From Giesbergeria sp. (GTDB lineage Bacteria; Pseudomonadota; Gammaproteobacteria; Burkholderiales; Burkholderiaceae_C): a DNA stretch of 64,000 bases. The translations under genes and the position numbers were made by a program. The notes beneath the pieces are model-generated. The model had not been told where the DNA came from. It searched no databases and saw nothing but the letters and a program-made list of their open reading frames with translations. The stretch lies in the NCBI GenBank assembly GCA_017985015.1, contig JAGNYI010000005.1:21041-85040 (forward strand), in the 5' to 3' direction. This document shows positions 6,770 through 62,502 of this stretch, piece by piece. Numbering within the stretch: the stretch's first letter is position 1; each line of letters starts with the position of its first letter.

Positions 6770-7281
6770 ATCGCATGTGTGGAGCTGAACTGAAGGCGCT
6801 TCCGGGTGGCGTACAGCGTGTGGCTGCGGCCTTGCAGCAGGCCGGCCACCTGCATGCGCCGCGCATGCTGGACGACGCCTGCCGCACCGCGCAGCAAGCG
6901 GCGGATGCGCTGGGCATTGCCGTGGGCCAGGTGGCCAAGAGCATCATTTTCCGGCGCATGTCGGACGACGCGGTGGTGCTGGTCATCACCTCGGGCGACC
7001 GGCGCGTGGATGCGGCCAAGGTCGAAGCGCTGGTGGGGGCGCTGGGCCGGGCCGACGCCGCCTTCGTCAAGGCGCGCACCGGTTTTTCCATTGGCGGCGT
7101 GGCGCCCATTGCCCACGCGGAGCCGGGCGTGACCTTGATTGACCGCGAACTGCTGCGTTTTGACACCCTGTGGGCGGCAGCGGGCCATCCACATGCCGTG
7201 TTTGCGCTGTCGCCGCACGATCTTGAGCGCCTGACGGGCGCGCCACTGGCCGATGTCACAGAGGCCCCGGGGCGCGCATGA
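6766..7281 (+). CDS. YbaK/EbsC-type aminoacyl-tRNA deacylase domain protein
   Basis: VAKSIIFR...VVLVITSGDRRVD...GFSIGGVAPIAH pattern. GTG start overlaps the upstream stop (GTGA). Confidence 0.65.
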   Translation: MNRMCGAELKALPGGVQRVAAALQQAGHLHAPRMLDDACRTAQQAADALGIAVGQVAKSIIFRRMSDDAVVLVITSGDRRVDAAKVEALVGALGRADAAFVKARTGFSIGGVAPIAHAEPGVTLIDRELLRFDTLWAAAGHPHAVFALSPHDLERLTGAPLADVTEAPGRA

Positions 7282-7553
7282 ATGCTATTAAAACAATAGC
7301 TGCTCGCGCACGCACATTAAGCGCTGCGGGCTATTTTGACCATGATTCCGATGAAGTGGTGCCGTCGCCCTGCGTATCGGTGTGCCGCATGTCGGCCGAC
7401 GGCAGCCTGTGCGAGGGGTGTTTTCGCAGCATCGCCGAAATTCGCGCTTGGTCCATGGCCGACGATGCCACCCGCCGCGCCATCTGGGTGCGGCTGCTGG
7501 AGCGGGCTGGCGCGCCCGTGCCAGCCAGCCTGCAAAGCACGGAGCGGCCATGA
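7278..7553 (+). CDS. DUF1289 family small Cys-rich protein; N-terminal ~22 codons encoded by an F1 element
   Basis: SPCVSVCRMSADGSLCEGCFRSIAEIRAW motif. ATG overlaps the upstream stop (ATGA). Confidence 0.6.
   Translation: MNAIKTIAARARTLSAAGYFDHDSDEVVPSPCVSVCRMSADGSLCEGCFRSIAEIRAWSMADDATRRAIWVRLLERAGAPVPASLQSTERP
7281..7345 (+). repeat. F1 element copy A (forward, inside DUF1289 ORF)
   Basis: AATGCTATTaaaaCAATAGCTGCTcGCGCacgcacaTTAAGCGCTGcGGGCtATTTTGACC. Confidence 0.75.
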
Positions 7554-8194
7554 AACGCATCACCTTCTACCTCGACTTCATCTCGCCCTACGCCTGGCTG
7601 GCCTTCGAGCGCCTGCCCGAGGCGCTCGAAGGCCTGAGCTACAGCGTCGAGTACCGGCCGGTGCTGCTGGGCGCGCTGCTGCAACAGCAAGGCAACCCGG
7701 GGCCGGCCGGCATTCCCCCGAAGCGCGACTGGACCTACCGGCATGTGAGCTGGCTCGGCCACTCGCTGGGCATCCCGTTGCAGATGCCGGCGCGCCATCC
7801 CTTCAACCCCTTGCCCTTGCTGCGGCGCGCGCTGGCCTGTTCAACCGACGGCAGCATCAACCGCTTTGTGGCGGGCACGGTGCTGCGCCACGTGTGGGTG
7901 GGGGGCCACGACGCACTCGACCCGGCTCGGCTCGATGCGCTGGCGCAAGTGCTGGCGCCACAGCTCAAACCTGGCATGGAGCCGCAAGACGCCGCCGTGA
8001 AAACCCTGCTGCGCAGCAATACCGATGCGGCGGCCGCACGCGGCGTGTTTGGTGTGCCGGCGTTTGGTGTGGACGACAAGCTCTTCTGGGGGCTTGATGC
8101 TCTGCCGATGCTGCGCGCCTGGTTGGAAGGCGATGCCTGGTTTGGCGCTGGCTGGGAGGCGTCGGCCCAGGTGGCAAGCGGTTTGCCCGGCTGA
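7550..8194 (+). CDS. 2-hydroxychromene-2-carboxylate isomerase family (DsbA-like thioredoxin fold)
   Basis: MKRITFYLDFISPYAWL N-terminus and FGVPAF...LFWGLD C-terminal motif. ATGA overlap with the upstream gene. Confidence 0.75.
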   Translation: MKRITFYLDFISPYAWLAFERLPEALEGLSYSVEYRPVLLGALLQQQGNPGPAGIPPKRDWTYRHVSWLGHSLGIPLQMPARHPFNPLPLLRRALACSTDGSINRFVAGTVLRHVWVGGHDALDPARLDALAQVLAPQLKPGMEPQDAAVKTLLRSNTDAAAARGVFGVPAFGVDDKLFWGLDALPMLRAWLEGDAWFGAGWEASAQVASGLPG

Positions 8195-8203
8195 TCCGGA
8201 CAT

Positions 8204-8233
8204 AAAAAAACCGGGCGCAAGGCCCGGCAAAAA
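8204..8233. terminator. bidirectional hairpin terminator between convergent genes
   Basis: aaaaaaaCCGGGCgcaaGGCCCGGcaaaaa. GC stem with A/T runs on both sides. Confidence 0.5.
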
Positions 8234-8291
8234 TGGCGCGGGTTTCTGGGCCGCGCCTGCGGGCGATGTGCCCGCGGAATGTCTTGCGCGC

Positions 8292-14936: not shown

Positions 14937-15066
14937 GCGCGCAGCCACGGGGCGGCGCAACGGCGCAGACCGAAGGCGCATGGGCCAACAGGGGCATGTT
15001 TCCCCGGCCGGTGCGGCCCAGCCGATATTTCTAGAATGTGGGGCCCTCATTTCCTGATTGCTCTAC

Positions 15067-21435
<6,369 letters not shown>

Positions 21436-48940: not shown

Positions 48941-48970
48941 TTTCCAAAAACCCCGCAAGCTTTGTATAAT
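48941..48970 (+). promoter_or_regulatory. candidate sigma70 promoter of rplM-rpsI (extended -10)
   Basis: TTTCCA-N18-TGTATAAT. About 175 nt leader before the rplM ATG. Confidence 0.35.
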
Positions 48971-49573: not shown

Positions 49574-49584
49574 GGAGCCTTGAG

Positions 49585-49977: not shown

Positions 49978-50003
49978 TCCGCACTTCCTGTTCTGCAGAC
50001 ACC

Positions 50004-50036
50004 AGCCGCACCGGTTCGCCGGGTGCGGCTTTTTTG
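50004..50036 (+). terminator. rho-independent terminator of rplM-rpsI
   Basis: AGCCGCACCGGttcgCCGGGTGCGGCT followed by TTTTTGTTT. Confidence 0.75.
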
Positions 50037-50112
50037 TTTGCAGGTGGTGGCTTGTGGTCCACAATCGCCCCTTTTGCGTGTGGGCAGCGCCTTGCGCCGC
50101 CCGAGGAGAAGA

Positions 50113-50838
50113 ATGCGTTTTCGATTGCTGCGTCGCCGCCTCACCATCAGCGCTCCGCGCATGGCGGTGCGCAGTGCGCTGCCCTGGCCCCTGCGCTGGC
50201 TGGTCTTTGCGGTGGTTCTCGGTCTGTGTGCGGCCGTGGCACTCTGGGCGTTCGAATTCGGGCGTTCGCTGGCGGGCCTGGACGCGGGTGGCCGCGAAGA
50301 GCTGGTGCAGCTGCGCAGCGAACTGGTGCGCCTGCGCACCGATGCACAGCAGAACCAGACCATTGCCAATACTTCGGGCAGCCTGCTGCTGGCCGAACGC
50401 TCGGCACTGGATCAACTCAAGCTGCAGCTCAGGCAACTGGAAGGCGAAAATCGGTCCTTGCGGGAAGACCTGGGATTTTTTGAAAAACTCATTCCCAGCA
50501 GCAGTTCGGACGGCGATCTGGCCATTCGGGGTCTGCAAGCCGAGCAGCAGGCCGATGCCACGCTGCGCTGGCAGGTGCTCGTCATGCGGCCGGTGAAGAA
50601 CGCGGCGGAGTTTTCCGGGCAGCTGGAGCTGGTGGCCTCGGGGATGCGGGAAGGCAAGCCTTGGAGTCAGCGCTTTCCAGGCGATGCGCAAGCCTTCAAA
50701 CTTCGCCAGTACCAACGGCTCGAAGGCATTGCCCGGCTGCCGCCCCATGTGCTGGTCAAAACCCTCACCGCCAGAATTCTGCACGAGGGGCGGGTTCGCG
50801 CTACGCAAACCACAGACGTCGGTTCGCAGAACCATTGA
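50113..50838 (+). CDS. hypothetical membrane-anchored coiled-coil protein
   Basis: MRFRLLRRRLTISAPR then a TM helix and heptad-like LVQLRSELVRLR...LKLQLRQLEGENRSLRED. Confidence 0.5.
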   Translation: MRFRLLRRRLTISAPRMAVRSALPWPLRWLVFAVVLGLCAAVALWAFEFGRSLAGLDAGGREELVQLRSELVRLRTDAQQNQTIANTSGSLLLAERSALDQLKLQLRQLEGENRSLREDLGFFEKLIPSSSSDGDLAIRGLQAEQQADATLRWQVLVMRPVKNAAEFSGQLELVASGMREGKPWSQRFPGDAQAFKLRQYQRLEGIARLPPHVLVKTLTARILHEGRVRATQTTDVGSQNH

Positions 50839-50880
50839 CTCCCTTTTTGATCTCCCATTCCCAGCTATAGGAGCGCCATC

Positions 50881-51279
50881 ATGTTTTCACGCAACAAGCA
50901 ACCCGCCATTAAAAGCCTGATCGCGCAAGGCACCCGCATCGAAGGCGACGTGCATTTTGTCGATGGCCTGCGCATCGACGGGGAAGTGCGTGGCGATGTG
51001 CGTGCGCAGGGAGGGCAATCGGGGCTGCTCGTGATATCGGCGCTGGCCCGGGTGGACGGCGCAGTACATGCTGCGCATGTCATCGTGAACGGCGAGGTGG
51101 TCGGGCCCGTGCACGCCACGGAACTGCTTGAATTGCAGCCCAAGGCACGCATTACAGGCGACGTGCATTACAAGGCCCTGGAAATGCACCAGGGCGCCAC
51201 CATTTGTGGAACCATGACACCTACGGACGCGGTGCTGGAGGAAAAGCCCCCACTCAAGCTAGCGTCAAGTGCGCAGTGA
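50881..51279 (+). CDS. bactofilin family cytoskeletal protein
   Basis: Beta-helical repeats IAQGTRIEGDVHFVDGLRIDGEVRGDV...ITGDVHYKALEMHQGA. Confidence 0.8.
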   Translation: MFSRNKQPAIKSLIAQGTRIEGDVHFVDGLRIDGEVRGDVRAQGGQSGLLVISALARVDGAVHAAHVIVNGEVVGPVHATELLELQPKARITGDVHYKALEMHQGATICGTMTPTDAVLEEKPPLKLASSAQ

Positions 51280-51339
51280 AAAGAATTCCCACGAAGACTG
51301 CAGTAGTATTTCCCTCAAATATGCGATTTGGAGTTAGCC

Positions 51340-51702
51340 ATGAATGCCGTTGCTGAGACTTTGCCGACCGAAATGCCCGACCCGATCATCTTCACTGAGA
51401 GTGCGGCGGCCAAGGTGGCCGATCTCATTGCCGAAGAAGGCAATCCAGAGCTGAAACTGCGCGTTTTTGTGCAGGGCGGGGGCTGCTCGGGGTTCCAGTA
51501 TGGCTTTACGTTTGACGAAATCACCAACGAAGACGATACCGTGATGACCAAGAACGGTGTCTCGCTGCTGATCGATGCCATGAGCTACCAGTATCTGGTA
51601 GGCGCAGAGATCGACTACAAAGAAGATCTGCAGGGCGCGCAGTTTGTCATCAAGAATCCGGGTGCGACGTCCACCTGCGGCTGCGGTTCCAGTTTTTCCT
51701 GA
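51340..51702 (+). CDS. erpA: iron-sulfur cluster insertion protein ErpA
   Basis: [20 protein letters not shown] and C-terminal CGCGSSF. Confidence 0.9.
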
Positions 51703-51711
51703 AACGAACCA

Positions 51712-51802
51712 GGAACCTCCTGTGGTGCTTCGCGCCTTCCCCCTTCTCTGGCATCGCTGCGCGATGCGGAAGCGGGACGCCGCCAGCGCGGCGGGGCGGC
51801 CG
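51712..51802. repeat. F2 element copy (forward)
   Basis: GTGCTTCGCGCCTTCCCCCTTCTCTG-GCATCGCtgcGCGATGC-GGAAGCGGGACGCCGCCAGCGCGGCGGGGCGGCC. Confidence 0.75.
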
Positions 51803-51856
51803 CTGGTCTGGGCGGCAGGTGCCGCGCACGCCGTATAGATAGCGAAGATTCAGGTT

Positions 51857-52993
51857 TCAAGCGGGGTAAATCGCCCCGAGCACACGGGCGCCACGGGCGC
51901 CCGTTGCATTGGGCAGGTTGCCTGGGAGACCGGCGAGCGCTTGGCGGGCCAGCCAGGCGAAAGCCGCCGCCTCGACCTGCTGCGCCGGCAGACCCAGGGC
52001 ATCGGTGGAGGTGACTTCCACGGCAGGCAGCAACACCTGCAGTCGGCGCATGAGCGTGGCGTTGCGCGCGCCGCCCCCACACACGGCCAGCCGTTGGCTC
52101 CCGCCGCCGTAGCTTTTGACGCACTCGGCACAGGCCTGCGCGGTCAATTCGGTCAGGGTCGCCTGCACGTCCTGCGGTAGTGCGCCGGGAGCGCAGGCCA
52201 GTTTTTCTTCCAGCCATCGGGCATGGAACAGATCCCGCCCGGTGCTTTTGGGCGGCGGCAGTGCAAAGAACGCCTCGGCGTAGAGCGCGTGCAGCAGCGG
52301 CTGCAGCACCTGGCCCGTGGCTGCCCAGGCGCCGTCCTTGTCGAACGTTTTGCCGGTATGGCGCTGGCACCAAAGGTCCATCAGCACGTTGCCAGGACCG
52401 CAATCAAAACCCAGTACCGTACCGTCTGCGCCGAGCACGCTCAGGTTGGTCATGCCGCCGATATTGAGCACGCAGGAGGGCTGCCCCGGCTGCGCAAACA
52501 CCTGCTGGTGAAAAGCCGGCACCAGCGGCGCTCCCTGGCCGCCAGCAGCGACATCGCGGCTGCGGAAATCGGCCACCACGGTGATGCCGGTGCGTTCGGC
52601 CAGCAGCGCCGGGCTGTTCAGCTGCAAGGTGTAGCCGGTGCCATCAAAGGCTTGGGGCTGGTGGCGGACGGTCTGGCCATGGGCGCCAATGGCACGTACC
52701 GCCGACGCGCTCAAGCTGCCTTGCGCCAACAGGGCGTGGACGACCTCGGCATACACGCCTGCCAGGGCATTGCCTGCCAGCGCGGCGCGGTGCAGTTCGT
52801 TGGTACCCGGGGTATTCAGTGCCAGCAATTCCGCTCTTAATTCAGGAGCTAGTGATGCAGACTGGTAGTGCGCTACCTTGCATTTTGACTCGGAAAAATC
52901 GGCCAACACGCCATCCACTCCGTCGAGCGAGGTGCCCGACATGAGGCCGATATAGAACTCTGGGGGAGAGGATGAGGCAGAGGATGGGGTCAC
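51857..52993 (-). CDS. anmK: anhydro-N-acetylmuramic acid kinase
   Basis: YIGLMSGTSLDGVDGVL N-terminal motif. Start uncertain: GTG at 52993 preferred, because the ATG at 53095 lies inside an F2 repeat. Confidence 0.8.
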   Translation of the reverse strand: MTPSSASSSPPEFYIGLMSGTSLDGVDGVLADFSESKCKVAHYQSASLAPELRAELLALNTPGTNELHRAALAGNALAGVYAEVVHALLAQGSLSASAVRAIGAHGQTVRHQPQAFDGTGYTLQLNSPALLAERTGITVVADFRSRDVAAGGQGAPLVPAFHQQVFAQPGQPSCVLNIGGMTNLSVLGADGTVLGFDCGPGNVLMDLWCQRHTGKTFDKDGAWAATGQVLQPLLHALYAEAFFALPPPKSTGRDLFHARWLEEKLACAPGALPQDVQATLTELTAQACAECVKSYGGGSQRLAVCGGGARNATLMRRLQVLLPAVEVTSTDALGLPAQQVEAAAFAWLARQALAGLPGNLPNATGARGARVLGAIYPA

Positions 52994-53039
52994 GCCGGCC
53001 CGCCGTCTCGCGGGGCGAGCGGCGTATACCAGGGCTCCC

Positions 53040-53136
53040 GCGCAAGGGCCGCCCCGCCGCGCTGGGAGCGTCCCCCTTCCCGAATTGCGTAGCAATTCGA
53101 GAGAAGGGGGAAGGCGCGAAGCGCCTCAGGGGGTTG
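53040..53136. repeat. F2 element copy (inverted relative to 51712)
   Basis: GGCCGCCCCGCCGCGCTGGGAGCGTCCCCCTTCC-CGAATTGCgtaGCAATTCG-AGAGAAGGGGGAAGGCGCGAAGCGCCTCAGGGGGTTG. Confidence 0.8.
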
Positions 53137-53141
53137 CATCC

Positions 53142-54500
53142 CTATTCGGCGCTGGCCTGCTCGATCAGCTGGGCGGCGCTCAGCTGGGTGCGCATCAGCG
53201 CGGCCATGCGGTCAAACGCCGGGCGCGAAGCCGCAGAGATGGGGGCCGCTGCCTCGCTGGACTTGGCAATGGTCATCGGGTCTTGCTGCTTGCCGTCCAC
53301 GCGGAACTCAAAATGCAGGTGCGGGCCGGTGGCCCAGCCCGTGGAGCCTACGGCGCCAATGGTTTCGCCTTGCGAGACGGATTCGCCCTTCTTCACGTCA
53401 ATGCGGCTGAGGTGGGCGTACACCGTGACATGCTCTTTGCGGTGCTTGATGAAGATGACGTTGCCAAAGCCGTTCTGCACGCCTGCGAACTCGACAACGC
53501 CGTCGCCCACGGTCCGCACCGCGGTGCCGGTGGGGGCGGCAAAGTCGGTGCCCAGATGGGCTCTCCACTTCTGCAGGATGGGGTGAAAGCGCATCGCAAA
53601 ACCGCTCGAAACGCGCGAAAACTCCAGCGGTGCACTCAGGTAAGCGCGGCGCAGGCTGTCGCCTGCGAGGCTGTAGTAGGCGCCCTTGCTGCCAGCCTCC
53701 TGGAACCAGACGGCTTCGTGGCTCTTGCCGTTGTTGACGAACTCGGCGCTCAGCACGCGGCCGGTGCGCAGGGGTTCACCGTCGGCTTCCAGGGTTTCAT
53801 ACACCACGGAAAAGCGATCGCCCTTGCGCAACGCCCGGCGGAAATCGATGTCGCCCGAGAACAGCTCAGCGAGTTGCACGGCGATGGAATCGGGGATGTT
53901 TGAATCGTCCGTTGCGGCAAACAGCGAACTGCGGATCACGCCGCCCGCAAGGCGGCTTGTCGCCGCCAGCGGGGCCGATTCCAGGCGGGAGCTGAAATCT
54001 TCGCCCGTGCGCTCAACCACCAGGCGTTTGAACTGGCCGCTGTCGTCCGGGGCCCAGCGCGCCGTCAGGCGCACCAAGCGGTGGTCGTCGGTGGTTTCCG
54101 CCGTGATGGAGCGGCCACTGCGGCCAAGGAGGTTCTGGTGCACCTTGCCGTCTTTGCGCAGCCAGGCGGCTGCCGCCGGGTCGGCCACGCCCAGGCGCTG
54201 CAGCAAGGATTCGGCGGTGTCGCTGCTGCGCAGCTGCTCGCTGCGGTACAGCGTGAAGCCCGGCTGCTCGGTCAACTGCGCCAGCGTGGTGTCGCTGGCC
54301 AGTGATTGCACGGGCATGGCAATGCGCTGCTGCGGCAGGTCGGCCGCGTCGGGGCCGAGCGAGGCCACGGCAAAGGCGCCGCCACCTGCGGTCAGCAAGA
54401 GCGCAGCAAGGGCGGCTGTAAGGCGTTTGGGGTGGTTGCGCAGGCTGCGGGTTAGGTTCCCCAGCACGGCGCGGCTGGCATCGGTCAAGCCATTGGTCAA
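53142..54500 (-). CDS. M23 family peptidoglycan metalloendopeptidase
   Basis: C-terminal HLGTDFAAPTGT...GNVIFIKH...GSTGWATGPHLHFE motifs. Start uncertain: TTG at 54500 after a GGGGA RBS. The ORF extends to 54710. Confidence 0.7.
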   Translation of the reverse strand: MTNGLTDASRAVLGNLTRSLRNHPKRLTAALAALLLTAGGGAFAVASLGPDAADLPQQRIAMPVQSLASDTTLAQLTEQPGFTLYRSEQLRSSDTAESLLQRLGVADPAAAAWLRKDGKVHQNLLGRSGRSITAETTDDHRLVRLTARWAPDDSGQFKRLVVERTGEDFSSRLESAPLAATSRLAGGVIRSSLFAATDDSNIPDSIAVQLAELFSGDIDFRRALRKGDRFSVVYETLEADGEPLRTGRVLSAEFVNNGKSHEAVWFQEAGSKGAYYSLAGDSLRRAYLSAPLEFSRVSSGFAMRFHPILQKWRAHLGTDFAAPTGTAVRTVGDGVVEFAGVQNGFGNVIFIKHRKEHVTVYAHLSRIDVKKGESVSQGETIGAVGSTGWATGPHLHFEFRVDGKQQDPMTIAKSSEAAAPISAASRPAFDRMAALMRTQLSAAQLIEQASAE

Positions 54501-54701
54501 AATTCTGTCCCCAGGGTGGCGTGGGTCTGGCACGGCAGGCGACCGGTTGGGTCGAGGGCTTACCAAGGCGCACAAACTGTCAGGATGGCCGTCTGGCAGT
54601 GCAAACCAAGCCGCAAAAACGGGGTGGCTACTAGAATCCGCGACGGCGAGGTGGCACGCAGTATAGCCAACCGAACGCCCTAGGCACCCTTGAAAACCCT
54701 T

Positions 54702-55934
54702 ATGAATCATTCAGTTGTTACAACTTATCCGGTCACCGATGCTGTAGGACAAGCGCTGGAAGTGTCGCTGCGCGGCGTCGAAGAACTGCTGCCGCAGCAG
54801 GAGTGGGTGCAAAAACTGGCCCGTTCGCAGGCCACCGGCCAGTCGCTGCGCATCAAACTTGGCCTGGACCCGACGGCGCCCGACATCCACATCGGCCACA
54901 CCGTGGTGCTCAACAAGATGCGCCAGTTGCAGGATCTTGGGCACCAGGTGATCTTCCTGATCGGCGACTTCACCAGCCTGATTGGCGACCCATCGGGCCG
55001 CAACAGCACGCGCCCGCCTCTCACGTCCGAGCAGATCAAGGTAAACGCCGAAACCTATTACCGCCAGGCCAGCCTGGTGCTGGACCCGGGGCGCACCGAA
55101 ATTCGCTACAACAGCGAGTGGAGCGAGCCCCTGGGCGCCAGCGGCATGATTGCCCTGGCCGCCAAATACACGGTGGCGCGGATGATGGAGCGCGACGATT
55201 TCCACAAGCGCTTCACCAGCGGCCAGTCGATCAGCGTGCACGAATTTCTGTACCCGTTGATGCAGGGCTACGACTCGGTGGCGTTGAAGAGCGACCTGGA
55301 ACTCGGCGGCACCGACCAGAAGTTCAACCTGCTGATGGGCCGCCACCTGCAGCAGGAATACGGCCAGGAGCCGCAGTGCATTCTGACCATGCCCTTGCTC
55401 GAAGGCCTCGACGGCGTCGAGAAGATGAGCAAGAGCAAGAACAACTACATCGGCATCAGCGAGCCGGCGAACACCATGTTTGCCAAGGTGCTGTCGATTT
55501 CCGACACGCTGATGTGGCGCTGGTACACGCTGTTGTCGTTCCGCTCGCTGGCCGAGATCGCGCAGCTCAAGGCCGAGGTGGAAGGCGGGCGCAACCCCAA
55601 GGACGCCAAGGTGATGCTCGCCAAGGAGATCACCACGCGCTTTCACAGCGCCGCAGCGGCCGATGCGGCCGAGCAGGATTTCGCCAACCGCAGCAAGGGC
55701 GGCGTGCCGGACGACATCCCCGAAGTGCAGCTCGCGGGCGCGCCGCTGGGCATTGGCGCTTTGCTCAAGCAGGCCAACCTGGCGCCCTCGTCCAGCGAGG
55801 CCAACCGCCTGATTGACGGTGGCGGCGTGCGGGTGGATGGCAGCGTGGTGAGCGACCGGGGCCTGAAGCTGGCGGCGGGCAGCTACGTGGTGCAGGTGGG
55901 CAAGCGCAGGTTTGCGCGCGTGGTGCTCGCCTGA
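54702..55934 (+). CDS. tyrS: tyrosine--tRNA ligase (type 2)
   Basis: DIHIGH (HIGH) and KMSKS motifs. C-terminal S4-like domain. Confidence 0.95.
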
Positions 55935-56012
55935 AATTCGCCGAATTTTTGGTTAAAAATGGCCTCTAGCGCTTATCTGGTAAGCATTTGAAGCTATTGA
56001 ATTAATAGCATC
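55935..56012 (-). repeat. F1 element copy I (the only inverted copy), fills the gap between two convergent stops
   Basis: Reverse complement reads GATGCTATTaattCAATAGCTTCAAATGCTTACCAGATAAGCGCTAGAGGCCATTTTTAACCAAAAATTCGGCG. Confidence 0.8.
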
Positions 56013-57015
56013 AATAAGGTGAGGCCAGTGTGTCCGGATCGGGCATGTCGCCAATGGCGCGGCGGGTGTTCTCGGCTTCCAGGGCCAGCCAGGCGCAAAA
56101 GGCCTGGATTTCGGGCCGCTGGCTGCTGCGCGGGCCGGTGAGCAGCCAGTAGGCCAGCGGCGAATCGAGCCGGTGGCCCGGCATCACCTCCACCAGGTCG
56201 CCCGAGGCCAGCGCATCGGCAATCAGCGGCATGCGCGCCAGCGCCAGGCCTTGGCCGGCGAGCGCTGCCTGCACGATCTGGTGCGCGTAGTTGAAATACA
56301 GCCAGCGCTTGGGTTGGAGCTGGCCGCAGCCCTGCGTATCGAACCAGCGCCGCCAGGTCAGCCATTCGAGATTCGCCGTACGGTGCGCGTCGCCCGCTTC
56401 AATCAGCGTAAAGCGCGCCATTTCAGCCGGCGTCTGCGGCGTCCCGCTGGCCTTGAGCAGCCAGGGGCTGGCGACCACGGCCAACTGCTCGCCGAACAGG
56501 CGCTGGCCACCCTGCATGCGGTGGCCGGGCAGGGTGTAGCGCAGGGCCAGGTCGACATCCGAGGTGTCCAGGTCCACTGGCAGGTCGCTGGCGTCGATGC
56601 GGATGTCGATGTCGGGGTTGTCGCGCTGGAAGGCCTCCATGCGCGGAATGAGCCACATCGAGGCAAAGCTGGCCCAGGTGGTGATGGCCACGCTTTTGCG
56701 CCCTGCACTCTGGCGCGCCAGGCGCACGGCGGCATCAATGCGTTCAATCGCTGGCGTGCAACTGCGCAGCAATTGGGCGCCGGAGCCGGTGAGCTCCACG
56801 GCCCGCGTATGGCGCAGAAACAGCGGCATGCCGATTTCGTCCTCCAGCGCCTGAATCTGGCGGCTGACGGCCGATTGGGTGAGCGACAGCGACTCGGCCG
56901 CTGCACGAAAGTTGAGCTGCTCGGCCACGGCCAGGAACGCGCGCCAATGGCCCAGCCCTACGGGGCGGCTGCGGGGCAGTGGGCGCGGGGAAGGCTGCTT
57001 GGGTGGGTTCGCCAT
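56011..57015 (-). CDS. LysR family transcriptional regulator
   Basis: N-terminal HTH FLAVAEQLNFRAAAESLSLTQSAVSRQIQALE. Full-length substrate-binding domain. Confidence 0.85.
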   Translation of the reverse strand: MANPPKQPSPRPLPRSRPVGLGHWRAFLAVAEQLNFRAAAESLSLTQSAVSRQIQALEDEIGMPLFLRHTRAVELTGSGAQLLRSCTPAIERIDAAVRLARQSAGRKSVAITTWASFASMWLIPRMEAFQRDNPDIDIRIDASDLPVDLDTSDVDLALRYTLPGHRMQGGQRLFGEQLAVVASPWLLKASGTPQTPAEMARFTLIEAGDAHRTANLEWLTWRRWFDTQGCGQLQPKRWLYFNYAHQIVQAALAGQGLALARMPLIADALASGDLVEVMPGHRLDSPLAYWLLTGPRSSQRPEIQAFCAWLALEAENTRRAIGDMPDPDTLASPY

Positions 57016-57026
57016 GGCGCCATTCT

Positions 57027-57049
57027 ATTGATGCGTCTTGCGCATCAAT
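57027..57049. promoter_or_regulatory. candidate LTTR operator (dyad containing T-N11-A)
   Basis: ATTGATGCGtcttgCGCATCAAT, a perfect 9-bp inverted repeat 12 bp upstream of the LysR start, in the divergent intergenic region. Confidence 0.4.
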
Positions 57050-57131
57050 GCGGCGATGCGTTTTCATTGGACGGACGGGGTCTGAACGCCGACCATGACA
57101 AACCTCACCACTGCATTTTCAGGAGCATCTC

Positions 57132-57497
57132 ATGTCCGCCCCCGCATCGTCGTTCCGCCCTGCAGCCTCCGCGTCTGCCCTGCCCACCACCGCCGCCGGG
57201 CAGCGCCTGGCGCCGGGAGAGGTGACCCGGCTGTCGGCGCCGCGCGCGCAGTTGCTGCGCATCGATTCGGGCTGTGCGTGGCTCACGTTTGGCCGCGGTC
57301 CGTTCGAGCCGGGGGGGTCGCGTGCGGGCGATGTCTTCTTGTGCGCCGGCCAGACGCTGCGCGTGCTGGCCGGCTCTCGCGTGCTGATCGAGGCGGCGCG
57401 TGGCATGGAGCTGCGCTTTGCCTGGCAACGGCCCGATGCCGTGCAGCGCCAGGTGCTGCGCCGCGCGCCTGCTTGCGCACCGGCGGCAAGCTGCTGA
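57132..57497 (+). CDS. hypothetical protein, DUF2917-like
   Basis: 121-aa ORF divergent from the LysR gene. LRIDSGCAWLTF...GDVFLCAGQTL pattern as I recall for DUF2917. Confidence 0.4.
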   Translation: MSAPASSFRPAASASALPTTAAGQRLAPGEVTRLSAPRAQLLRIDSGCAWLTFGRGPFEPGGSRAGDVFLCAGQTLRVLAGSRVLIEAARGMELRFAWQRPDAVQRQVLRRAPACAPAASC

Positions 57498-57575
57498 GCC
57501 AGCCCATCGGCCCCAACGGGCGGCGGGGATAATGCGCTGTGAGGCCGGGCGCCGCCCGGTGCATAGACGCGAAGC

Positions 57576-59006
57576 ATGAACCCCATTGACATCGTGATCA
57601 TGGCTGCCGGCAAGGGCACGCGCATGAAAAGCCGCCTTCCCAAGGTCCTGCAGCGCCTGGCAGGCCGCCCGCTGCTGCAGCATGTGCTGGGCCAGGCGAG
57701 CGCACTGGGTGCGCGCAGCGCCATCGTCGTCACCGGCCATGGTGCTATGGAAGTAGAAGCTGCTTGCGCAGGTGCGATAAGCGCTGGAGGCCAATTTGAC
57801 CTGAAATTCGTGCGCCAGGAGCCGCAGCTGGGCACCGGCCATGCCGTGCAGCAGGCGGCGCCGCTGTTGCAGGACGACGGCACCGTCGTCGTGCTCTCGG
57901 GCGACGTGCCGCTGACGCAGCCGGGCACCGTGCGCGCCCTGGTGCAGGCCAGCGCTGACGAAGCACTGGCGCTGCTCACCGTGCGTCTGCCCGACCCCAA
58001 GGGCTATGGCCGCATCGTGCGCGGTGCAGATGGATTGGTGCGCGGCATCGTCGAAGAAAAAGATGCGAGCGACGCCGAGCGCACCATTACCGAGGTCTAC
58101 AGCGGCATCCTCGCTGTGCCCGCGCGCCTGCTGCTGCAGTGGCTGCCGCGCCTGTCCAACCAGAACGCCCAGGGCGAGTACTACCTGACCGAGGTGGTGG
58201 CCATGGCTGTGGCGCAGGGCGTGCCGGTGACCACGCACACCATCGACGACGCGGTGCAGGTGGCAGGCGTCAACAGCCCGGCGCAACTGGCCGAGCTGGA
58301 GCGCGCCCACCAGAGCCGCGCCGCCATCCAACTGATGGAGCAGGGCGTGCGCCTGTCTGATCCTGCACGCTTTGACCTGCGCGACGACGCGCGCAGCGGC
58401 GCGCGCGCCGAACTGGTGTGCGCGCAGGATGTGGAAATCGACGTCGGCTGCCTCTTCACCGGCCGGGTCGAACTGGGCGAGGGCGTGCGCATCGGCGCCT
58501 ATTGCTGCATTGCCAATGCGTCGATTGCCGCCGCAGCCGTGATCCACCCGTTCACGCACATTGACGGCGAAGCGGCCGGTGTGCAGGTGGGCGAGGGCGC
58601 GTTGGTCGGCCCCTTTGCCCGGCTGCGCCCCGGTGCCCAGCTCGGGCGCGGGGTGCACATTGGCAATTTCGTCGAAGTGAAAAACAGCCAGTTGGCCGAC
58701 GGCGCCAAGGCCAACCACCTGGCCTATCTGGGCGACGCCACGGTGGGCGAGCGCGTGAACTACGGCGCCGGCAGCATCACCGCCAACTACGACGGGGCCA
58801 ACAAGCACCGCACGGTGATTGAGGCCGACGTGCACATCGGCAGCAACTGCGTGCTGGTGGCGCCGGTTACCGTGGGCGCGGGCGCCACGGTGGGTGGCGG
58901 CTCGACCATCAGCAAGGACGTACCCGCCGGGGCGCTGAGCGTGGCGCGCGGACGGCAAACCAACATCACCGGCTGGAAACGGCCGGCCAAGAAACCCGCG
59001 CCCTGA
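57576..59006 (+). CDS. glmU: bifunctional UDP-N-acetylglucosamine pyrophosphorylase / glucosamine-1-phosphate N-acetyltransferase, with an in-frame F1 insertion
   Basis: MAAGKGTRMKS, QLGTGHAV and the left-handed beta-helix hexapeptide C-terminal domain. Confidence 0.95.
   Translation: MNPIDIVIMAAGKGTRMKSRLPKVLQRLAGRPLLQHVLGQASALGARSAIVVTGHGAMEVEAACAGAISAGGQFDLKFVRQEPQLGTGHAVQQAAPLLQDDGTVVVLSGDVPLTQPGTVRALVQASADEALALLTVRLPDPKGYGRIVRGADGLVRGIVEEKDASDAERTITEVYSGILAVPARLLLQWLPRLSNQNAQGEYYLTEVVAMAVAQGVPVTTHTIDDAVQVAGVNSPAQLAELERAHQSRAAIQLMEQGVRLSDPARFDLRDDARSGARAELVCAQDVEIDVGCLFTGRVELGEGVRIGAYCCIANASIAAAAVIHPFTHIDGEAAGVQVGEGALVGPFARLRPGAQLGRGVHIGNFVEVKNSQLADGAKANHLAYLGDATVGERVNYGAGSITANYDGANKHRTVIEADVHIGSNCVLVAPVTVGAGATVGGGSTISKDVPAGALSVARGRQTNITGWKRPAKKPAP
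57743..57810 (+). repeat. F1 element copy J (forward, in-frame in glmU)
   Basis: GTGCTATGGAAGTAGAAGCTGCTTGCGCAGGTGCGATAAGCGCTGGAGGCCAATTTGACCTGAAATTC. Encodes AMEVEAACAGAISAGGQFDLKF. Confidence 0.85.
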
Positions 59007-59032
59007 AAGCGGCGCGCCGAAGGAGCGAGAGC

Positions 59033-59839
59033 ATGACCGGCACCGCACCCGAAGGTTTTTCGTCTGTCCCCGCCCTGGGCGGCGCGCCCGCGCAGGGAAC
59101 TCAGGAAGCGCAGGGCATGCAAGAACTGGCGCGCCTGCGCACGGCGCACCAGGACTTGCTGCGTGCCATTTCGCACGATTTGCGTGCGCCGCTGCGCCAT
59201 GTGACGGCGTTTGCGCCGCTGTTACGCGAAATTGTCGAGCCCGCCGCCTTGCCTGCGGCCGAGCATGCCGAGGCGCTGGAGTTCCTGAGCACCATCGAGC
59301 AGGCGGGCCAGCGCATGGGCCGCATGATCGACGGCTTGCTTGCGCTCTCGCGCATCCAGGCGGCGGCGCTGCGCGTTGAGGCGGTGGACCTGGCCCGCTT
59401 GGTGCCGCAGGTGGTGGATGCGCTGGCGCCCGCCGCAGCTGGCCGAAGTATCGATTGGCGCCTGGGGCCCGAGCTGGGCGTGGTGCAGGCCGACGAGGCG
59501 CTGCTGCGCCAGTTGCTCAAGGAGCTGCTGGCCAATGCGATCAAGTTCACCCGCAACACGCCTGCACCGTGCATTGCGGTGCGCGCCGCGCGCAGTGGCA
59601 GTGAGAGTGGCACGGGCGCCTGGACGCTGCAGGTGCAGGACAACGGTGCGGGGTTTGATGGGGCGCAGGCCCATGGGCTGTTTGCCATGTTCCAGCGCCT
59701 GCACCCCGAGCGCGAATTCGAGGGCGTGGGCGCGGGCCTGGCCATCGTGCGGGCGGTGGCGCAGCGCCATGGTGGCGGCGTCAGCGCGCAGGCCGCGCCG
59801 GGTGACGGCTGCACGGTGGAAGTGGTCTGGCCGGGGTGA
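59033..59839 (+). CDS. soluble histidine kinase without a recognisable sensor domain
   Basis: HisKA ISHDLRAPL. HATPase boxes LLANAIKF, DNGAGF and GVGAGLAIV. No TM segment. Confidence 0.75.
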   Translation: MTGTAPEGFSSVPALGGAPAQGTQEAQGMQELARLRTAHQDLLRAISHDLRAPLRHVTAFAPLLREIVEPAALPAAEHAEALEFLSTIEQAGQRMGRMIDGLLALSRIQAAALRVEAVDLARLVPQVVDALAPAAAGRSIDWRLGPELGVVQADEALLRQLLKELLANAIKFTRNTPAPCIAVRAARSGSESGTGAWTLQVQDNGAGFDGAQAHGLFAMFQRLHPEREFEGVGAGLAIVRAVAQRHGGGVSAQAAPGDGCTVEVVWPG

Positions 59840-59852
59840 CCTTTGCCGTCTG

Positions 59853-59925
59853 AGTGCTATTGAATAAATAGCTGCTGACGCTTGTGAAATAAGCGTTGGA
59901 TGCCAAAAATATCAAAAATATTTTC
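59853..59925 (+). repeat. F1 element copy K (forward), between convergent genes
   Basis: AGTGCTATTgaataAATAGCTGCTGACGCTTGTGAAATAAGCGTTGGATGCCAAAAATATCAAAAATATTTTCGG. Confidence 0.8.
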
Positions 59926-59931
59926 GGCGCA

Positions 59932-61041
59932 TCAGCCCAACACGGGCCTGCCCTCCGCCGCGTGCGGCTGGCTGCCACGGGGTTCAACGGCCACACGATT
60001 TCGCCCGCCGTGTTTGGCGCGGTACATGGCCATGTCGGCGGTATTGAGCCAGTCGCGCAGCGTCAGGTGGCTGCTTTGCGCCTGCGCCATGCCGATGCTG
60101 CTGGTCAGCTGCAGCTCGGGCAGTTCGGGCAGGCGCAGCGCAGCGATGCGTTCGCGAATGCGCTGCGCAATGGCCAGGGCATGGGCTTCGTCGGTGTCGG
60201 CGCAGACCACGGCAAACTCGTCGCCGCCGTAGCGCCCGGCGCAGTCGGCCTCGCGCACGGATTCGCGGATGACTTCGCCCACCACCCGAATCGCTTCGTC
60301 GCCCACGGTGTGGCCGTGCACGTCGTTGATGGGTTTGAAGTGGTCGATGTCGATCATCAGCAGCCAGGCTGGCCGGTCGCTGCTGCGCGCGCCCTCCAGC
60401 ACGGCCTGGGCTTGCTCCTGCCAGTGTGCGCGGGCGAACAGGCCGGTCTGCGCATCGCGCTGGCGCAACTCCTTCAACTGCTGGTTTTGCCTCGCCACGG
60501 TGCGAATCAGCCGGTAGCTCGTAAAGCCCACCGCCAGACTGTGCAGCGCAATCACCGGCAACGTGGCGATGATGACCGGCAGCGAGCTGGCCAGCACCGG
60601 CTCGGGCCGCAGGACCAGCGTGCCCAGCACTGCCATGCCGACCATGCCGGGCAGCGAATACAGCCACAGCCGCTTGATGCCGGTGCCGAACTTGTCGTGC
60701 GTCGTGATGACCGCCAGCACCACGCAAGGCAGCAGGTTGAAGTGCATCAGCGGAATCCACAGGCCGACGATGGCCGAGTCGATCAGCAGGTTGCGGACTT
60801 CAGCGCGGTAGGGGTCGCGGCTGGTGCGCGCGTGCAGATAGGCCAGGTGCGGCCACAGCACCATGGTGAGGAGTGACACCCAGCCAAAGCGCGCCAGATC
60901 GCCGGTCTGGATCAGCACGCTGCAGGTCACCCAAAACCCCAACCCCATTCCCAATATGCGCAACGGGTAAATGCTGCGATAGGTGTTTGCGCGCGCGCTG
61001 GCGCCGCGGTGCCTGGGGGCAGACGGCGGGGGAGCTGTCAT
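59932..61041 (-). CDS. membrane-bound diguanylate cyclase (GGDEF)
   Basis: Six-helix N-terminal domain and RYGGDEF active site. ATGA overlap with the cbpM stop. Confidence 0.8.
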   Translation of the reverse strand: MTAPPPSAPRHRGASARANTYRSIYPLRILGMGLGFWVTCSVLIQTGDLARFGWVSLLTMVLWPHLAYLHARTSRDPYRAEVRNLLIDSAIVGLWIPLMHFNLLPCVVLAVITTHDKFGTGIKRLWLYSLPGMVGMAVLGTLVLRPEPVLASSLPVIIATLPVIALHSLAVGFTSYRLIRTVARQNQQLKELRQRDAQTGLFARAHWQEQAQAVLEGARSSDRPAWLLMIDIDHFKPINDVHGHTVGDEAIRVVGEVIRESVREADCAGRYGGDEFAVVCADTDEAHALAIAQRIRERIAALRLPELPELQLTSSIGMAQAQSSHLTLRDWLNTADMAMYRAKHGGRNRVAVEPRGSQPHAAEGRPVLG

Positions 61042-61382
61042 GACCCAGGCACGGGAGGCCGCAGTTGCCGCAGCTGGTGGCGCAGCTCGGCCACTTCCTC
61101 CATCAAATCCACGGTGAGCGCCGCCAGATGCGGATCGGCGTCAAACGAGGCTTCCAGGTCTGCCACGCGGCGGGCGCGAACCAGTGTGGTGCTGGCAAAG
61201 CGCCAGGTGACCAGCCCGCCCCTTGCTGTGTCGGCGGGATGGGGGGCGATGACGCCGGCTTCGACGTGTTCGCTCACCCATTCGGGTGCACGGCGGCAGG
61301 CGCGAGCCAGTTCTTCGAGGCTCAAACTGTCGTCGCCCAGCAGTTCGGCCATCTGGGCGGGGAGGTGAAAGGCATGGGGCAT
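61038..61382 (-). CDS. cbpM: chaperone modulator CbpM (MerR-like)
   Basis: Small protein immediately downstream of cbpA. LSLEELARACRRAPEWVSEHVEAGVI. Confidence 0.7.
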   Translation of the reverse strand: MPHAFHLPAQMAELLGDDSLSLEELARACRRAPEWVSEHVEAGVIAPHPADTARGGLVTWRFASTTLVRARRVADLEASFDADPHLAALTVDLMEEVAELRHQLRQLRPPVPGS

Positions 61383-61385
61383 GGC

Positions 61386-62387
61386 TCAGGCTCCTTGCTG
61401 AGTTTGCGAGATGGTGCGCGGGTTGAACGTGGGGAAGGCTTTGCCAAGCGCTGTCCAGGCAGCGCGCGCGGCGTCGCTGTCGGCCGGTGGCAGGGCAATG
61501 TCGACTTCCAGGTACAGATCCCCCGGTGTTGCCGAGGGAATGCCACGGCCCTTGAGGCGGAGCTTCCGCCCCGCGCGTGAGCGCGCCGGCACAGTCACTT
61601 CGACGGTGCCGCTGGGCGTGTGCACCTCGACGCTGGCGCCCAGCGCTGCTTCCCACGGCGCGAGCGGCAAGGGCTGGTAGACGTCGCGGTCCACGCTGCG
61701 CCAGCGTGCATCGGGCCGGAAGTGCACTTCCAGGAACAGATCGCCCGCCGGCGCGTCGCCCATGCCCGGCGCGCCCTGGCCGGCGAGGCGAATGAGCTGG
61801 CCTTCGCGCACGCCCTTGGGAATTTTTACTTCGAGATTGCGCTCCTCGCTCACCATGCGCCCGTCCGGGCCGGGGCGCGCGGCGCGCAGCGACAGCGTGC
61901 GCGTGCCGCCCTGGTAGGCGTCGAGCAGGTCGAGCTCGATCTTGGCGTGGTGGTCGCTTCCGCGCCGGGCCGCATGGCCGCCGCCTTGACCAAACCCACC
62001 TGCACTGCCTGCACCGCCGCGCTGGCGCGCAGCCTGGCCAAAGAGCTGCTCGAAGAAGTCGCTGTAGTCGCCACCGCCGCCACCTTCAGATGGGCCGCCC
62101 GAGAATTCAAAACCCGTATCCCAGCCCGGTGGTGGGCGAAACTCGCCGCCGCCGCGTGCGCCCTGGGCCGCCGCCTGCGCGCTGACGCTGTCGTAGGCGG
62201 CGCGCTTTTCCGGGTCGGAGAGCACGGTGTTGGCCTCGTTCAGCTGGGCCATCTTGGCGGCAGCGTCCGCCTCTTTGCTCACGTCGGGGTGGTACTTGCG
62301 CGCCAGCTTGCGAAACGCCTTTTTGATCTCATCCTGGCTGGCGCTTTTCTCTACGCCCAGCGTCTGGTAGTAATCCTTGAATTCCAT
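61386..62387 (-). CDS. cbpA: curved-DNA-binding DnaJ-class co-chaperone
   Basis: J domain MEFKDYYQTLGVEKSASQDEIKKAFRKLARKYHPD. Gly-rich linker. No Zn finger. ATG at 62387. Confidence 0.85.
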   Translation of the reverse strand: MEFKDYYQTLGVEKSASQDEIKKAFRKLARKYHPDVSKEADAAAKMAQLNEANTVLSDPEKRAAYDSVSAQAAAQGARGGGEFRPPPGWDTGFEFSGGPSEGGGGGDYSDFFEQLFGQAARQRGGAGSAGGFGQGGGHAARRGSDHHAKIELDLLDAYQGGTRTLSLRAARPGPDGRMVSEERNLEVKIPKGVREGQLIRLAGQGAPGMGDAPAGDLFLEVHFRPDARWRSVDRDVYQPLPLAPWEAALGASVEVHTPSGTVEVTVPARSRAGRKLRLKGRGIPSATPGDLYLEVDIALPPADSDAARAAWTALGKAFPTFNPRTISQTQQGA

Positions 62388-62471
62388 TCGGCAGGACTCC
62401 GGGTTGGGGTGGCTCAGGCCATAGTGTGAACTAGGCGCTTTGCGCTGCACGTCGGACAGTGTCTCAGAGTG

Positions 62472-62502
62472 AGAAAATCTTGATAGCGGCAAGCGCTTAC
62501 TG
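62472..62502 (+). repeat. F1 element copy L (truncated; provides the Lrp stop codon)
   Basis: AGAAAATCTTGATAGCGGCAAGCGCTTACTG. Confidence 0.55.

Follow-up and report, generated by a model that had tools for sequence, protein, structure and literature searches.

A stretch of 64,000 nucleotides from Giesbergeria sp. (GenBank assembly GCA_017985015.1, contig JAGNYI010000005.1, positions 21,041 to 85,040 of the forward strand; hereafter the window, meaning the whole of this stretch) carries a short AT-rich repeat scattered both between and inside its genes, and the question that it raises is what this element is, how it came to lie in such different contexts, and whether it still moves. An earlier sequence-only reading listed twelve copies and likened them to REP sequences (repetitive extragenic palindromes) and their mosaics (bacterial interspersed mosaic elements, BIMEs) or to MITEs (miniature transposable elements with inverted repeats), moved by a hairpin-recognizing single-strand transposase. 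The explanation that is probably correct is a different one: the copies belong to an ancient, non-autonomous, AT-rich repeat family of about 72 bp in the Comamonadaceae, tolerated in frame by genes and essentially immobile today. The family exists and is distributed well beyond the window, its copies reside in frame in proteins and are orthologous across genera, and neither a family-wide strand bias nor recent copies were found. The copies presumably originated by insertion.

The repeat family in the window

In the window, the repeat is represented by eleven full copies, to which one decayed and two marginal copies can be added. A profile built from the eleven full copies recovers all of them with nhmmer E values of 2.5e-15 to 5.3e-22, and another profile, based on 163 distinct copies of which most come from other species, recovers the same eleven with E values of 3.5e-8 to 1.3e-18. 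An independent gap-free repeat finder likewise returns the family as the top and largest repeat of the window (nine copies, 72 nt). The twelve copies listed earlier all lie where they had been placed, eleven on the plus strand and one on the minus strand (55941-56012), at the claimed density of one copy per 5 kb, and their AT-richness relative to the surroundings is borne out by a mean G+C content of 43.5% versus 65.6% for the window. The copy described as truncated (62472-62502) is actually full length (~62478-62545) with a decayed 3' half, and its orthologues in Paracidovorax L063 and Acidovorax L087 are intact. The two marginal copies, both on the plus strand (18403-18460 and 46069-46138), are additions to the earlier list, and the presence of four copies inside open reading frames (ORFs), where they are read in frame, had been overlooked. 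With genes called by a crude criterion based on G+C at third codon positions (GC3), the copies are as follows.

7280 to 7350, plus strand: element copy (E 1.1e-12), beginning at the stop codon of a gene with a YbaK/tRNA-editing domain (6766-7281; Pfam)
16702 to 16773, plus strand: element copy (E 4.2e-17), in frame in the first UvrA unit of a 2125-aa double UvrA ORF
18403 to 18460, plus strand: marginal, heavily decayed element-like stretch (E 1.2e-3, 14.3 bits), uncertain, exactly at the junction of the two UvrA units
20132 to 20200, plus strand: element copy (E 1.2e-16), in frame in the second UvrA unit, within the linker that precedes its second ATPase module
27791 to 27861, plus strand: element copy (E 3.5e-8), filling the spacer of two convergent genes (stops at 27790 and 27864)
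30144 to 30212, plus strand: element copy (E 3.2e-15) with an altered 5' box, in a divergent spacer (gene starts at 30140, minus strand, and 30316, plus strand)
34549 to 34619, plus strand: element copy (E 2.8e-18), abutting the stop of the convergent gene 34622-35554
38975 to 39041, plus strand: element copy (E 7.7e-16), in the spacer between genes 36939-38435 (plus strand) and 39308-40936 (minus strand)
44489 to 44560, plus strand: element copy (E 1.3e-18), in frame ('...DASDLIAACADGISAEGQFDLKFS...') in a TlyA-type rRNA methyltransferase gene (44072-44857)
46069 to 46138, plus strand: marginal element-like stretch (E 6.4e-3, 11.9 bits), uncertain, antisense within gene 45712-46605 (minus strand)
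55941 to 56012, minus strand: the sole inverted copy (E 1.4e-15), in a spacer onto which tyrS (stop at 55934) and a LysR-type gene (stop at 56011) converge
57742 to 57812, plus strand: element copy (E 1.8e-15), in frame ('...AMEVEAACAGAISAGGQFDLKFV...') in glmU (57576-59006), at GlmU residues ~56-79
59853 to 59923, plus strand: element copy (E 3.2e-13), in the 92 nt that separate a histidine-kinase gene (stop at 59839) from a GGDEF gene convergent with it (stop at 59932)
62478 to 62545, plus strand: decayed full-length copy (E 3.5e-5), upstream of a DnaJ/CbpA-like gene

The open frame of the copy at 7280 continues into a downstream Cys-rich ORF, and the orthologous copy in Albidiferax L005 has the same open frame. 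The copy at 34549 provides the last codons and the stop of ORF 33931-34563 (translation '...KLIAASAY*'), that at 62478 overlaps the 3' end of a minus-strand AsnC-type gene, and no gene called with confidence spans the copy at 38975. The copy at 27791 is the most decayed of the full copies, and the copy at 59853 is not recognizable in L063 or L087. A possible vestigial copy, seen by eye in an alignment and lacking a profile hit, lies on the minus strand at ~1590-1640 ('...GCTCGCCGGAGGCAAAAAAAGC...'); Albidiferax L005 has an intact copy (6713-6794) at the matching site.

The consensus of the 163 copies, aaTGCTATTaaaTTgATAGCTGCTAGCGCTTgtTggATAAGCGCTAGAGGCCaATTTgACttaAAATTttcgg, is 72-73 nt long and has sharp edges, with conservation falling off on both sides to unconserved GC-rich flanks. 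Its core is a hairpin of 7-10 bp (AGCGCTT/AAGCGCT) between the conserved boxes ATAGCT and GAGGCC, and its tail occurs in at least two variants (CCAATTTGAC... and CCAAAAAGGCT...). In the common layout of boxes proposed earlier, the 5' box ATGCTATT is missing or altered in the copies at 16699, 30151, 34553, and 38978. The second of two proposed hairpin modules is largely intact in intergenic copies, whereas the first is weak (3.2-3.8 of 5 pairs). Hairpin 2 forms 6.0-6.25 of 7 pairs in intergenic copies versus 5.0-5.3 in intragenic copies, and at least 6 of 7 pairs are kept in 72-83% of the intergenic copies; as the sequence-only reading had it, the best-preserved example is that of copy 34549 (34571-34593; CCAGCGCTTA-ctgaa-TAAGCGCTGG). 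Compensatory change is almost absent across copies, a G-C to A-T change in hairpin 2 of copy 59853 being such a case. Among copies outside the search pattern, the 3' arm is more conserved than the 5' arm in both hairpin 2 (0.97 versus 0.85) and hairpin 1 (0.95 versus 0.78). RNAalifold applied to the 163 copies returns only a 4-bp ATAGC/GCTA pairing and supports neither the proposed stems nor a conserved RNA fold, and no Rfam family (Rfam 15) matches any copy at the gathering or a permissive threshold.

The consensus has no terminal inverted repeats, its ends (TGCTATTAAA... and ...AAAATTTTCGG) not being mutually inverted, and a GTAG/CGTC head is absent from both ends. No target-site duplication is visible in 40 sampled copies with flanks, although the copies are old and a short duplication could have decayed. 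A conserved target motif or 5' tetra- or pentanucleotide was likewise not found, the only feature being an A/T enrichment at positions -3 to -1. A composite element larger than 72 bp was considered and rejected, since the flanks are unconserved and a DUF1010 integron cassette (see below) shares only the element part with the chromosomal copies. An intrinsic terminator was also rejected: no T run follows the hairpin on either strand, and only copy 34549 adjoins a separate GC hairpin. A sigma-70 promoter (TTGATA-N17-GATAAG) was not called at the five copies in 27000-46999, the second hexamer lacking the required T, and the single promoter call inside a copy (38978) involves a different hexamer pair on the minus strand. 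By eye, a site resembling that of the integration host factor (IHF), one mismatch from WATCAANNNNTTR, is present in a subset of copies only.

Distribution, orientation, and copies read inside genes

The sequence-only reading had called for a wider scan, and a pattern spanning both conserved boxes, run over one genome per bacterial species, returns no fewer than 119 loci, the family thus not being confined to the window. All named organisms among the matches listed are Comamonadaceae, and the remainder are unclassified Burkholderiales-type metagenome-assembled genomes; the named genera among the matches listed are Acidovorax, Paracidovorax, Giesbergeria, Simplicispira, Comamonas, Ottowia, Rhodoferax/Albidiferax, and Extensimonas. 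The loci listed yield 190 profile matches in 915 kb, or about one further copy per 13 kb once the recruiting copies are excluded, which by extrapolation suggests hundreds of copies per genome. Outside chromosomes the element is scarce, with matches in 5 of 72,556 plasmids and in 6 of 2.9 million viral contigs but in none of the isolated phages. Copies are solitary, those that share an 8-kb locus lying kilobases apart, and one third of the window copies are intragenic. Among copies in spacers, 37 lie between convergent genes versus 7 between divergent genes (p = 5e-6), and a preference for gene 3' ends is thus a systematic feature of the family. A full-text search of the literature returned nothing on such an element in Comamonadaceae, and DUF1010/orfF appears there only with the label of function unknown.

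The 11:1 orientation in the window had been taken as an argument for a single-strand transposase, an argument that finds no support in the family as a whole. In other genomes, the orientation of copies is that of the locally G-rich strand, as given by GC skew, in 80 of 154 cases (p = 0.69) and in 34 of 69 cases at strong-skew loci, pairs of copies sharing a locus are co-oriented in 22 cases and opposed in 24, and the spacers of tandem genes hold 25 sense and 27 antisense copies. A tie to the replichore is rejected for the family on the skew and the same-locus pairs. A tie to the upstream gene, suggested by four window copies (including the inverted one) that directly follow a TGA on the same strand, is rejected on the tandem spacers, convergent spacers being uninformative on this point. 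Since orientation is random elsewhere, the window bias (nominal p 0.006; 7:1 and p = 0.07 for the intergenic copies alone) is local rather than a trait of the family, and it is partly due to the four in-gene copies, which sit in plus-strand genes.

These four copies are read in frame in GlmU, in a TlyA-type methyltransferase, and twice in a double-length UvrA, the hosts being identified by Pfam and PDB matches. The UvrA ORF (15058-21435, 2125 aa) has coding-type GC3, runs through the copies at 16702 and 20132, and is a head-to-tail fusion of two complete UvrA units; the linker of the second unit is ~31 aa longer than its equivalent in the first, as read by eye from the translation rather than from a tool alignment. 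Compared with solved homologues, the extra residues in GlmU and TlyA fall in variable loops. In TlyA, the element encodes residues ~140-164, and the AlphaFold model (mean pLDDT, the predicted local distance difference test score, of 81) has a single segment below 50, residues 142-158, which lies within them and is predicted to be disordered.

The same UvrA ORF also contains an unrelated repeat, three tandem GC-rich units of 84 nt at 15508-15758 (98-99% identical, with the palindrome CCCCCTTGGGGGG), which are translated in frame as a 28-residue peptide repeated three times. A fourth, diverged unit (65%) lies 4.7 kb downstream at 20411-20493. The tandem block is apparently absent from the Acidovorax SCN 68-22 orthologue (L036), where the blast alignment breaks (window 15497-15763 versus L036 3071-3085). 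Upstream of the TlyA-type gene, the only true Rfam match of the window is an S-adenosylhomocysteine (SAH) riboswitch (RF01057, 48.9 bits) at 42296-42416; it precedes an adenosylhomocysteinase gene, which is followed by the element-bearing TlyA-type gene and then by a metF-type gene.

A shared protein module, i.e., a peptide repeat rather than a DNA element, could be imagined from the fact that one frame is open or nearly so in most copies, encoding approximately LIA-A-x-A-Y-x-ISAGGQF-x-x-KF, and that the peptide LIAAxAYxISAGGQF recurs in four genes. This alternative is so improbable as to be negligible, and is refuted by the intergenic copies and by the use of several frames and both strands. 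Most copies are intergenic and carry stop codons in the LIA...ISAGGQF frame, the copies resemble one another more closely as DNA than as encoded peptides, disorder is predicted for the peptide, and no Pfam or NCBIfam family matches the sense-frame peptides. Moreover, the intragenic copies of other species occur on both strands and in at least five frames, with the stops of the consensus removed each time (e.g., '...IDSYSCLPDKRFGQI...', '...QISLQRLLDKRYQLSN...', and '...KSASSAYATSADSYQISS...'), which has the look of a DNA element that lands in genes and then comes under selection for an open frame, and not of a shared protein module.

Age, mobility, and comparison with known mobile elements

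Orthologous copies are found across genera. Nearly every tlyA orthologue in the Comamonadaceae contains the copy (Simplicispira, Rhodoferax, and Ramlibacter among them), and further shared copies are that of glmU in Paracidovorax L063 and Acidovorax L087, both of uvrA in L036, that at 7280 in Albidiferax, and that at 62478 in L063 and L087. The paralogues within the window are distant from one another (mean identity 62%, best pair 79%), the intragenic copies being the best preserved, and in 14 genomes the identity of the non-core positions is 0.55 within genomes versus 0.52 between them. No near-identical paralogues were found in these 14 genomes, the only very similar pairs being orthologues.

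Presence/absence polymorphism between strains, which the sequence-only reading had proposed to seek, did not emerge. The window is matched at 100% identity by a contig of assembly GCA_018062545.1, and at the three sites compared (57743, 59853, and 62478) no difference was seen among contigs from the same species or a close relative (95.9-100% identical), apparent length differences among them being runs of N. A clean empty site was not found either, as the candidates are decayed or internally deleted remnants or spacers that cannot be aligned between genera. The TlyA orthologue P0045/L131 is 12 aa shorter, but it looks like an internal deletion because both ends of the element are retained; the TlyA of P0011 was discarded as a candidate because it is short elsewhere in the protein, and the pair L062/L001 versus L073 because it involves a GC-enriched remnant. 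Judged from the alignments, the differences between genera look like decay by point change, G+C enrichment, and deletion. The orthologous copies, the old paralogues, and the occurrence of remnants only thus give no evidence of movement since the genera split.

The closest likeness to such a family may be the Rickettsia palindromic elements (RPEs), reportedly described by Ogata et al. in 2000. Like the element, RPEs are AT-rich, short, dispersed repeats that can form hairpins and are present many times in a genome, and both families occupy spacers as well as in-frame positions inside conserved genes, with the peptide at surface loops. Terminal inverted repeats, visible target duplications, and a known transposase are lacking in both, and in both many copies are old and common to several species. 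In-frame residence of this type is seen here in GlmU, TlyA, and UvrA, with the predicted disordered loop 142-158 of TlyA being encoded by the element. The differences are that the two are unrelated in sequence (NCBIfam, which includes RPE domain models, has no match to translations of the element in three frames, and Rfam has none), that the element is 72 bp long versus roughly 100-150 bp for RPEs, that its hosts are free-living, high-G+C Betaproteobacteria rather than reduced intracellular genomes, and that the same element is read in several frames and in both orientations. By analogy alone, the best reading of the element would be a fossil dispersed repeat comparable to the RPEs. If this is true, the Comamonadaceae possess their own equivalent, long-lived inside essential genes (glmU, uvrA) without destroying them, and the tolerance of selfish DNA within proteins is not peculiar to reduced intracellular genomes. 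For annotation, the repeat is a source of spurious ORFs and of extended N termini, and a portion of Pfam DUF1010 is made up of it.

The REP-like or MITE-like character proposed for the copies stands insofar as they are genuine small dispersed repeats with a central hairpin, but the defining features of those families were not found. Like REP sequences, BIMEs, and REPINs (REP doublets forming hairpins), the element is small, forms a hairpin, is mostly extragenic, sits at gene 3' ends, and is present in hundreds of copies per genome (for the element, by extrapolation), and the genomes with the element contain a single-copy, vertically inherited Y1 transposase-like gene, as in systems of a REP-associated tyrosine transposase (RAYT). 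Unlike them, it is 72 bp long rather than 20-40 bp, has no GTAG/CGTC head, forms no inverted doublets, sits on only one side of the RAYT-like gene, is AT-rich where REP sequences are GC-rich, and is intragenic in a third of its window copies. With MITEs and repeats derived from insertion sequences of the IS200/IS605 type it shares a non-autonomous nature, a similar size, and occasional in-frame insertion in genes; in contrast to MITEs, it has no terminal inverted repeats and no visible target-site duplication, and in contrast to IS200/IS605, no conserved 5' target tetra- or pentanucleotide and no family-wide strand bias.

The earlier statement that the window holds no candidate transposase agrees with the partial evidence available: a rough phmmer screen for Y1/HUH proteins over six-frame ORFs of at least 70 aa returned nothing, and the remaining support comes from Pfam searches of ten ORFs and from gene annotation of 49033-64000 only (46640-49033 being unannotated). 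Across the ~1 Mb of flanking DNA in other genomes, no recurrent transposase-like gene that could represent a parent insertion sequence was found among the 665 genes flanking copies. A rough local screen of 9,055 ORFs, made with two hand-written Y1 transposase sequences as queries, gave one match, confirmed as Y1_Tnp (Pfam PF01797, 32.5 bits versus a cut-off of 23). The gene is single, 74-97% identical, and syntenic (DUF1415 - methyltransferase - Y1_Tnp - gltB) in Acidovorax, Paracidovorax, and Verminephrobacter, and it lies at the following positions.

L071, 2543 to 3238, strand not stated: Y1_Tnp gene
L137 to L140, 2501 to 3211, strand not stated: Y1_Tnp gene

A single-copy, syntenic, conserved Y1 gene is typical of domesticated RAYT-type genes, and the RAYT candidate that the sequence-only reading had suggested seeking exists in relatives, but its association with the element amounts to one old copy, on the 3' side only and in some of the genomes. 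That the family is a REP/REPIN- or IS200/IS605-derived repeat moved single-stranded by such a Y1 (HUH) transposase encoded elsewhere is improbable. The conserved central hairpin and the single syntenic gene agree with it, as do the copy that begins at the stop codon of the gene in L071 and the decayed copy in the same place in L137; the copy is, however, vestigial in L139 and L140 and absent from L138, and the adjacency is a single one in ~380 flanking genes, near chance (expectation ~0.08, an estimate). The gene is bracketed instead by a different inverted motif (ATCGGGGAC / GTCCCCGAT). Strand bias, a GTAG/CGTC head, inverted doublets, a conserved target tetranucleotide on the 5' side, and recent copies are all absent from the family, and the local screen relied on hand-written reference sequences. 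The Y1_Tnp gene may have its cognate repeat in the motifs around it (AATCGGGGAC upstream and two occurrences of GTCCCCGATTAAT downstream); the GWCCCCGAT motif of these flanks is absent from the window.

A further setting of the element is the integron. One of the plasmid matches lies inside orfF (gcuF), a cassette of unknown function in the clinically widespread class 1 array dfrA12-orfF-aadA2, and similar cassettes occur in chromosomes.

L130 (E. coli plasmid pP11b), 2858 to 3148, strand not stated: orfF cassette (DUF1010)
L134, 6001 to 6291, strand not stated: chromosomal DUF1010 cassette
L135 and L136, 2600 to 6330, strand not stated: chromosomal DUF1010 cassettes

The orfF cassette carries an antisense copy of the element (nhmmer E 4e-15) that is read through as '...FLASSACVASASSYRF...'. 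The orfF product corresponds to Pfam DUF1010 (PF06231; 98.4 bits over positions 1-65 of 66), and the antisense frame of the element consensus matches DUF1010 positions 1-24 (E 6e-4) at 20.6 bits, below the cut-off of 25. The element covers only the first third of the domain, the rest being cassette sequence that includes attC and is not part of the dispersed element, and since the reading frame of the orfF 'protein' likewise continues across attC, orfF is possibly not a genuine gene. Comamonadaceae genomes commonly encode several full-length DUF1010 homologues each (68-79% identical), and the cassettes (~330 bp) are found in chromosomal integrons of Alicycliphilus and Simplicispira, with up to six per array and ~85-90% DNA identity to the clinical cassette (alignment read by eye). 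The DUF1010 cassette family arose in, or passed through, an element-carrying genome, and the combination in orfF/gcuF of a Comamonadaceae-specific repeat with 85-90% identity to the cassettes of this family points to the Comamonadaceae as the origin of the cassette.

In the L134 array, a second cassette (~6866-7108), compared with that at 6001-6291, is missing exactly 48 nt that make up the element core (TAGCTGC...GGCCAAAAAGACTGGA), with a 2-nt TC repeat on the borders of the gap. This is the only discrete indel of the element that was seen; with the 5' part of the element retained, it may be a deletion as well as a pre-insertion state.

The copies could conceivably be orphan integron recombination sites or remnants of DUF1010-type cassettes that an integron integrase inserted at secondary sites, but this is very improbable. 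Each full DUF1010 cassette aligned contains one copy in a fixed antisense orientation (the one cassette without the 48-nt core aside), both in the Alicycliphilus and Simplicispira chromosomal integrons and in clinical orfF/gcuF; the L134 integrase is a true integron integrase, IntI (TIGR02249, 468 bits versus a cut-off of 265), and integron integrases recognize folded single strands. Against this, cassette and chromosomal copies share only the ~65 nt of the element, and the finding that none of 74 matches covers any other part of the cassette largely refutes the idea. The attC site of the cassette is a separate sequence, adjacent to and downstream of the element, the element consensus lacks RYYYAAC...GTTRRRY core sites, chromosomal copies are solitary and lie in either orientation among housekeeping genes, and none of the window copies is in a cassette or integron. 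With only the element part common to cassette and chromosome and attC separate, the element is a dispersed element and not an integron site.

Possible constraint on the conserved core

Under the explanation favored here, that of an ancient repeat family, the copies would have entered the chromosome as DNA in either orientation and would have survived where harm was small, mainly in intergenic spacers next to 3' ends and, within proteins, at surface loops or linkers. Within proteins, internal stops would have been mutated away, leaving a copy that is translated as a floppy peptide (e.g., LIAAxxxGISAGGQF). The expansion would have preceded the divergence of the present genera, with the family essentially immobile since, such that intergenic copies presumably decay by point change, G+C enrichment, and deletion while intragenic copies are preserved by coding constraint. 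Selection for a host function may now be maintaining the core boxes, and the combination of conserved cores with saturated non-core positions may reflect either such selection or the detection of survivors only.

The alternative that overlaps with this explanation is a domesticated cis element, in which the hairpin and boxes serve the host and the copies are kept by selection; its role could be that of a binding site for a nucleoid or other DNA-binding protein, or of an RNA hairpin at the 3' end (mRNA decay or termination). This is a live though less likely possibility. Conservation is uneven, as 40 copies outside the pattern have values of 0.95 for ATAGC and 0.97 for AAGCGCT versus 0.45 for the loop and 0.58 for the tail, and hairpin 2 is kept in intergenic copies and less so in genes. 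Copy 59853 shows a compensatory change, the cassette version has an extended stem, and gene 3' ends are strongly favored as sites. Pooled over orthologous spacers, identity is 73% for the element versus 51% for the remaining spacer (individual pairs 0.87 versus 0.46 and 0.94 versus 0.53), and in paralogues the cores persist, with no sign of new copies, while the non-core positions are close to saturation; these two observations together suggest selection on the core.

Each of these comparisons has limits, however. Detection of a copy needs the core, so that core conservation is partly circular, and since the two members of every orthologous pair had been found by way of an intact core, the 73% versus 51% contrast is inflated. 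The spacers downstream of Y1_Tnp, which were fetched blind to the element, contain a decayed copy in one genome, vestigial copies in two, and none in one, a neutral-like pattern. The random orientation of copies relative to genes speaks against an RNA role tied to one strand, and the lack of a T run after the hairpin, of a sigma-70-like promoter at the five copies scanned, and of any Rfam match all speak against a cis element.

Several observations also weigh against the ancient repeat family as the explanation. No insertion event has been caught in the form of a filled/empty pair, a target-site duplication, or a terminal structure, and an origin by insertion is suggested solely by the discrete edges of the element, its many contexts, and its many reading frames. 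The net gain in length is only +7 aa in GlmU and +12-13 aa in TlyA, whereas the element encodes ~24 aa, so that a simple insertion must have been followed by the loss of neighboring native residues. Given the age indicated by orthology, neutral intergenic copies should be unrecognizable, yet many remain, and their persistence, together with the 73% versus 51% conservation, points to either selection or later activity that escaped detection. Additionally, the copies from other species were ascertained through the conserved core, and their sampling is biased by the search pattern and the profile threshold.

A more specific proposal along the line of selection is that the element is a site for a conserved host factor, kept after an ancient burst at hundreds of copies per genome since the origin of the Comamonadaceae, under selection strong enough to retain it even in essential genes, and reused in the DUF1010/gcuF cassettes, an abundant non-coding family that has reached clinical class 1 integrons. 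This proposal is rather doubtful as it stands; in it, the hairpin and the ATAGCT and AAGCGCT-GAGGCC boxes could be recognized by a nucleoid or segregation protein, or by a domesticated Y1 (RAYT-like) protein.

Two minor observations concern other parts of the window. In the spacer after a DsbA-like gene, a weak, sub-threshold Rfam match to the Burkholderia 'anti-hemB' small RNA lies on the minus strand at 8202-8278 (28.4 bits versus 49.5, E 0.014). At 2734-2768 and 2852-2886, 118 nt apart, the window contains a 35-nt duplicate (91% identical) of a gene start ('ATGTTTAAAAAAATCCTGATTGC...') that encodes MFKKILIA..., a biotin-carboxylase-type N-terminus.

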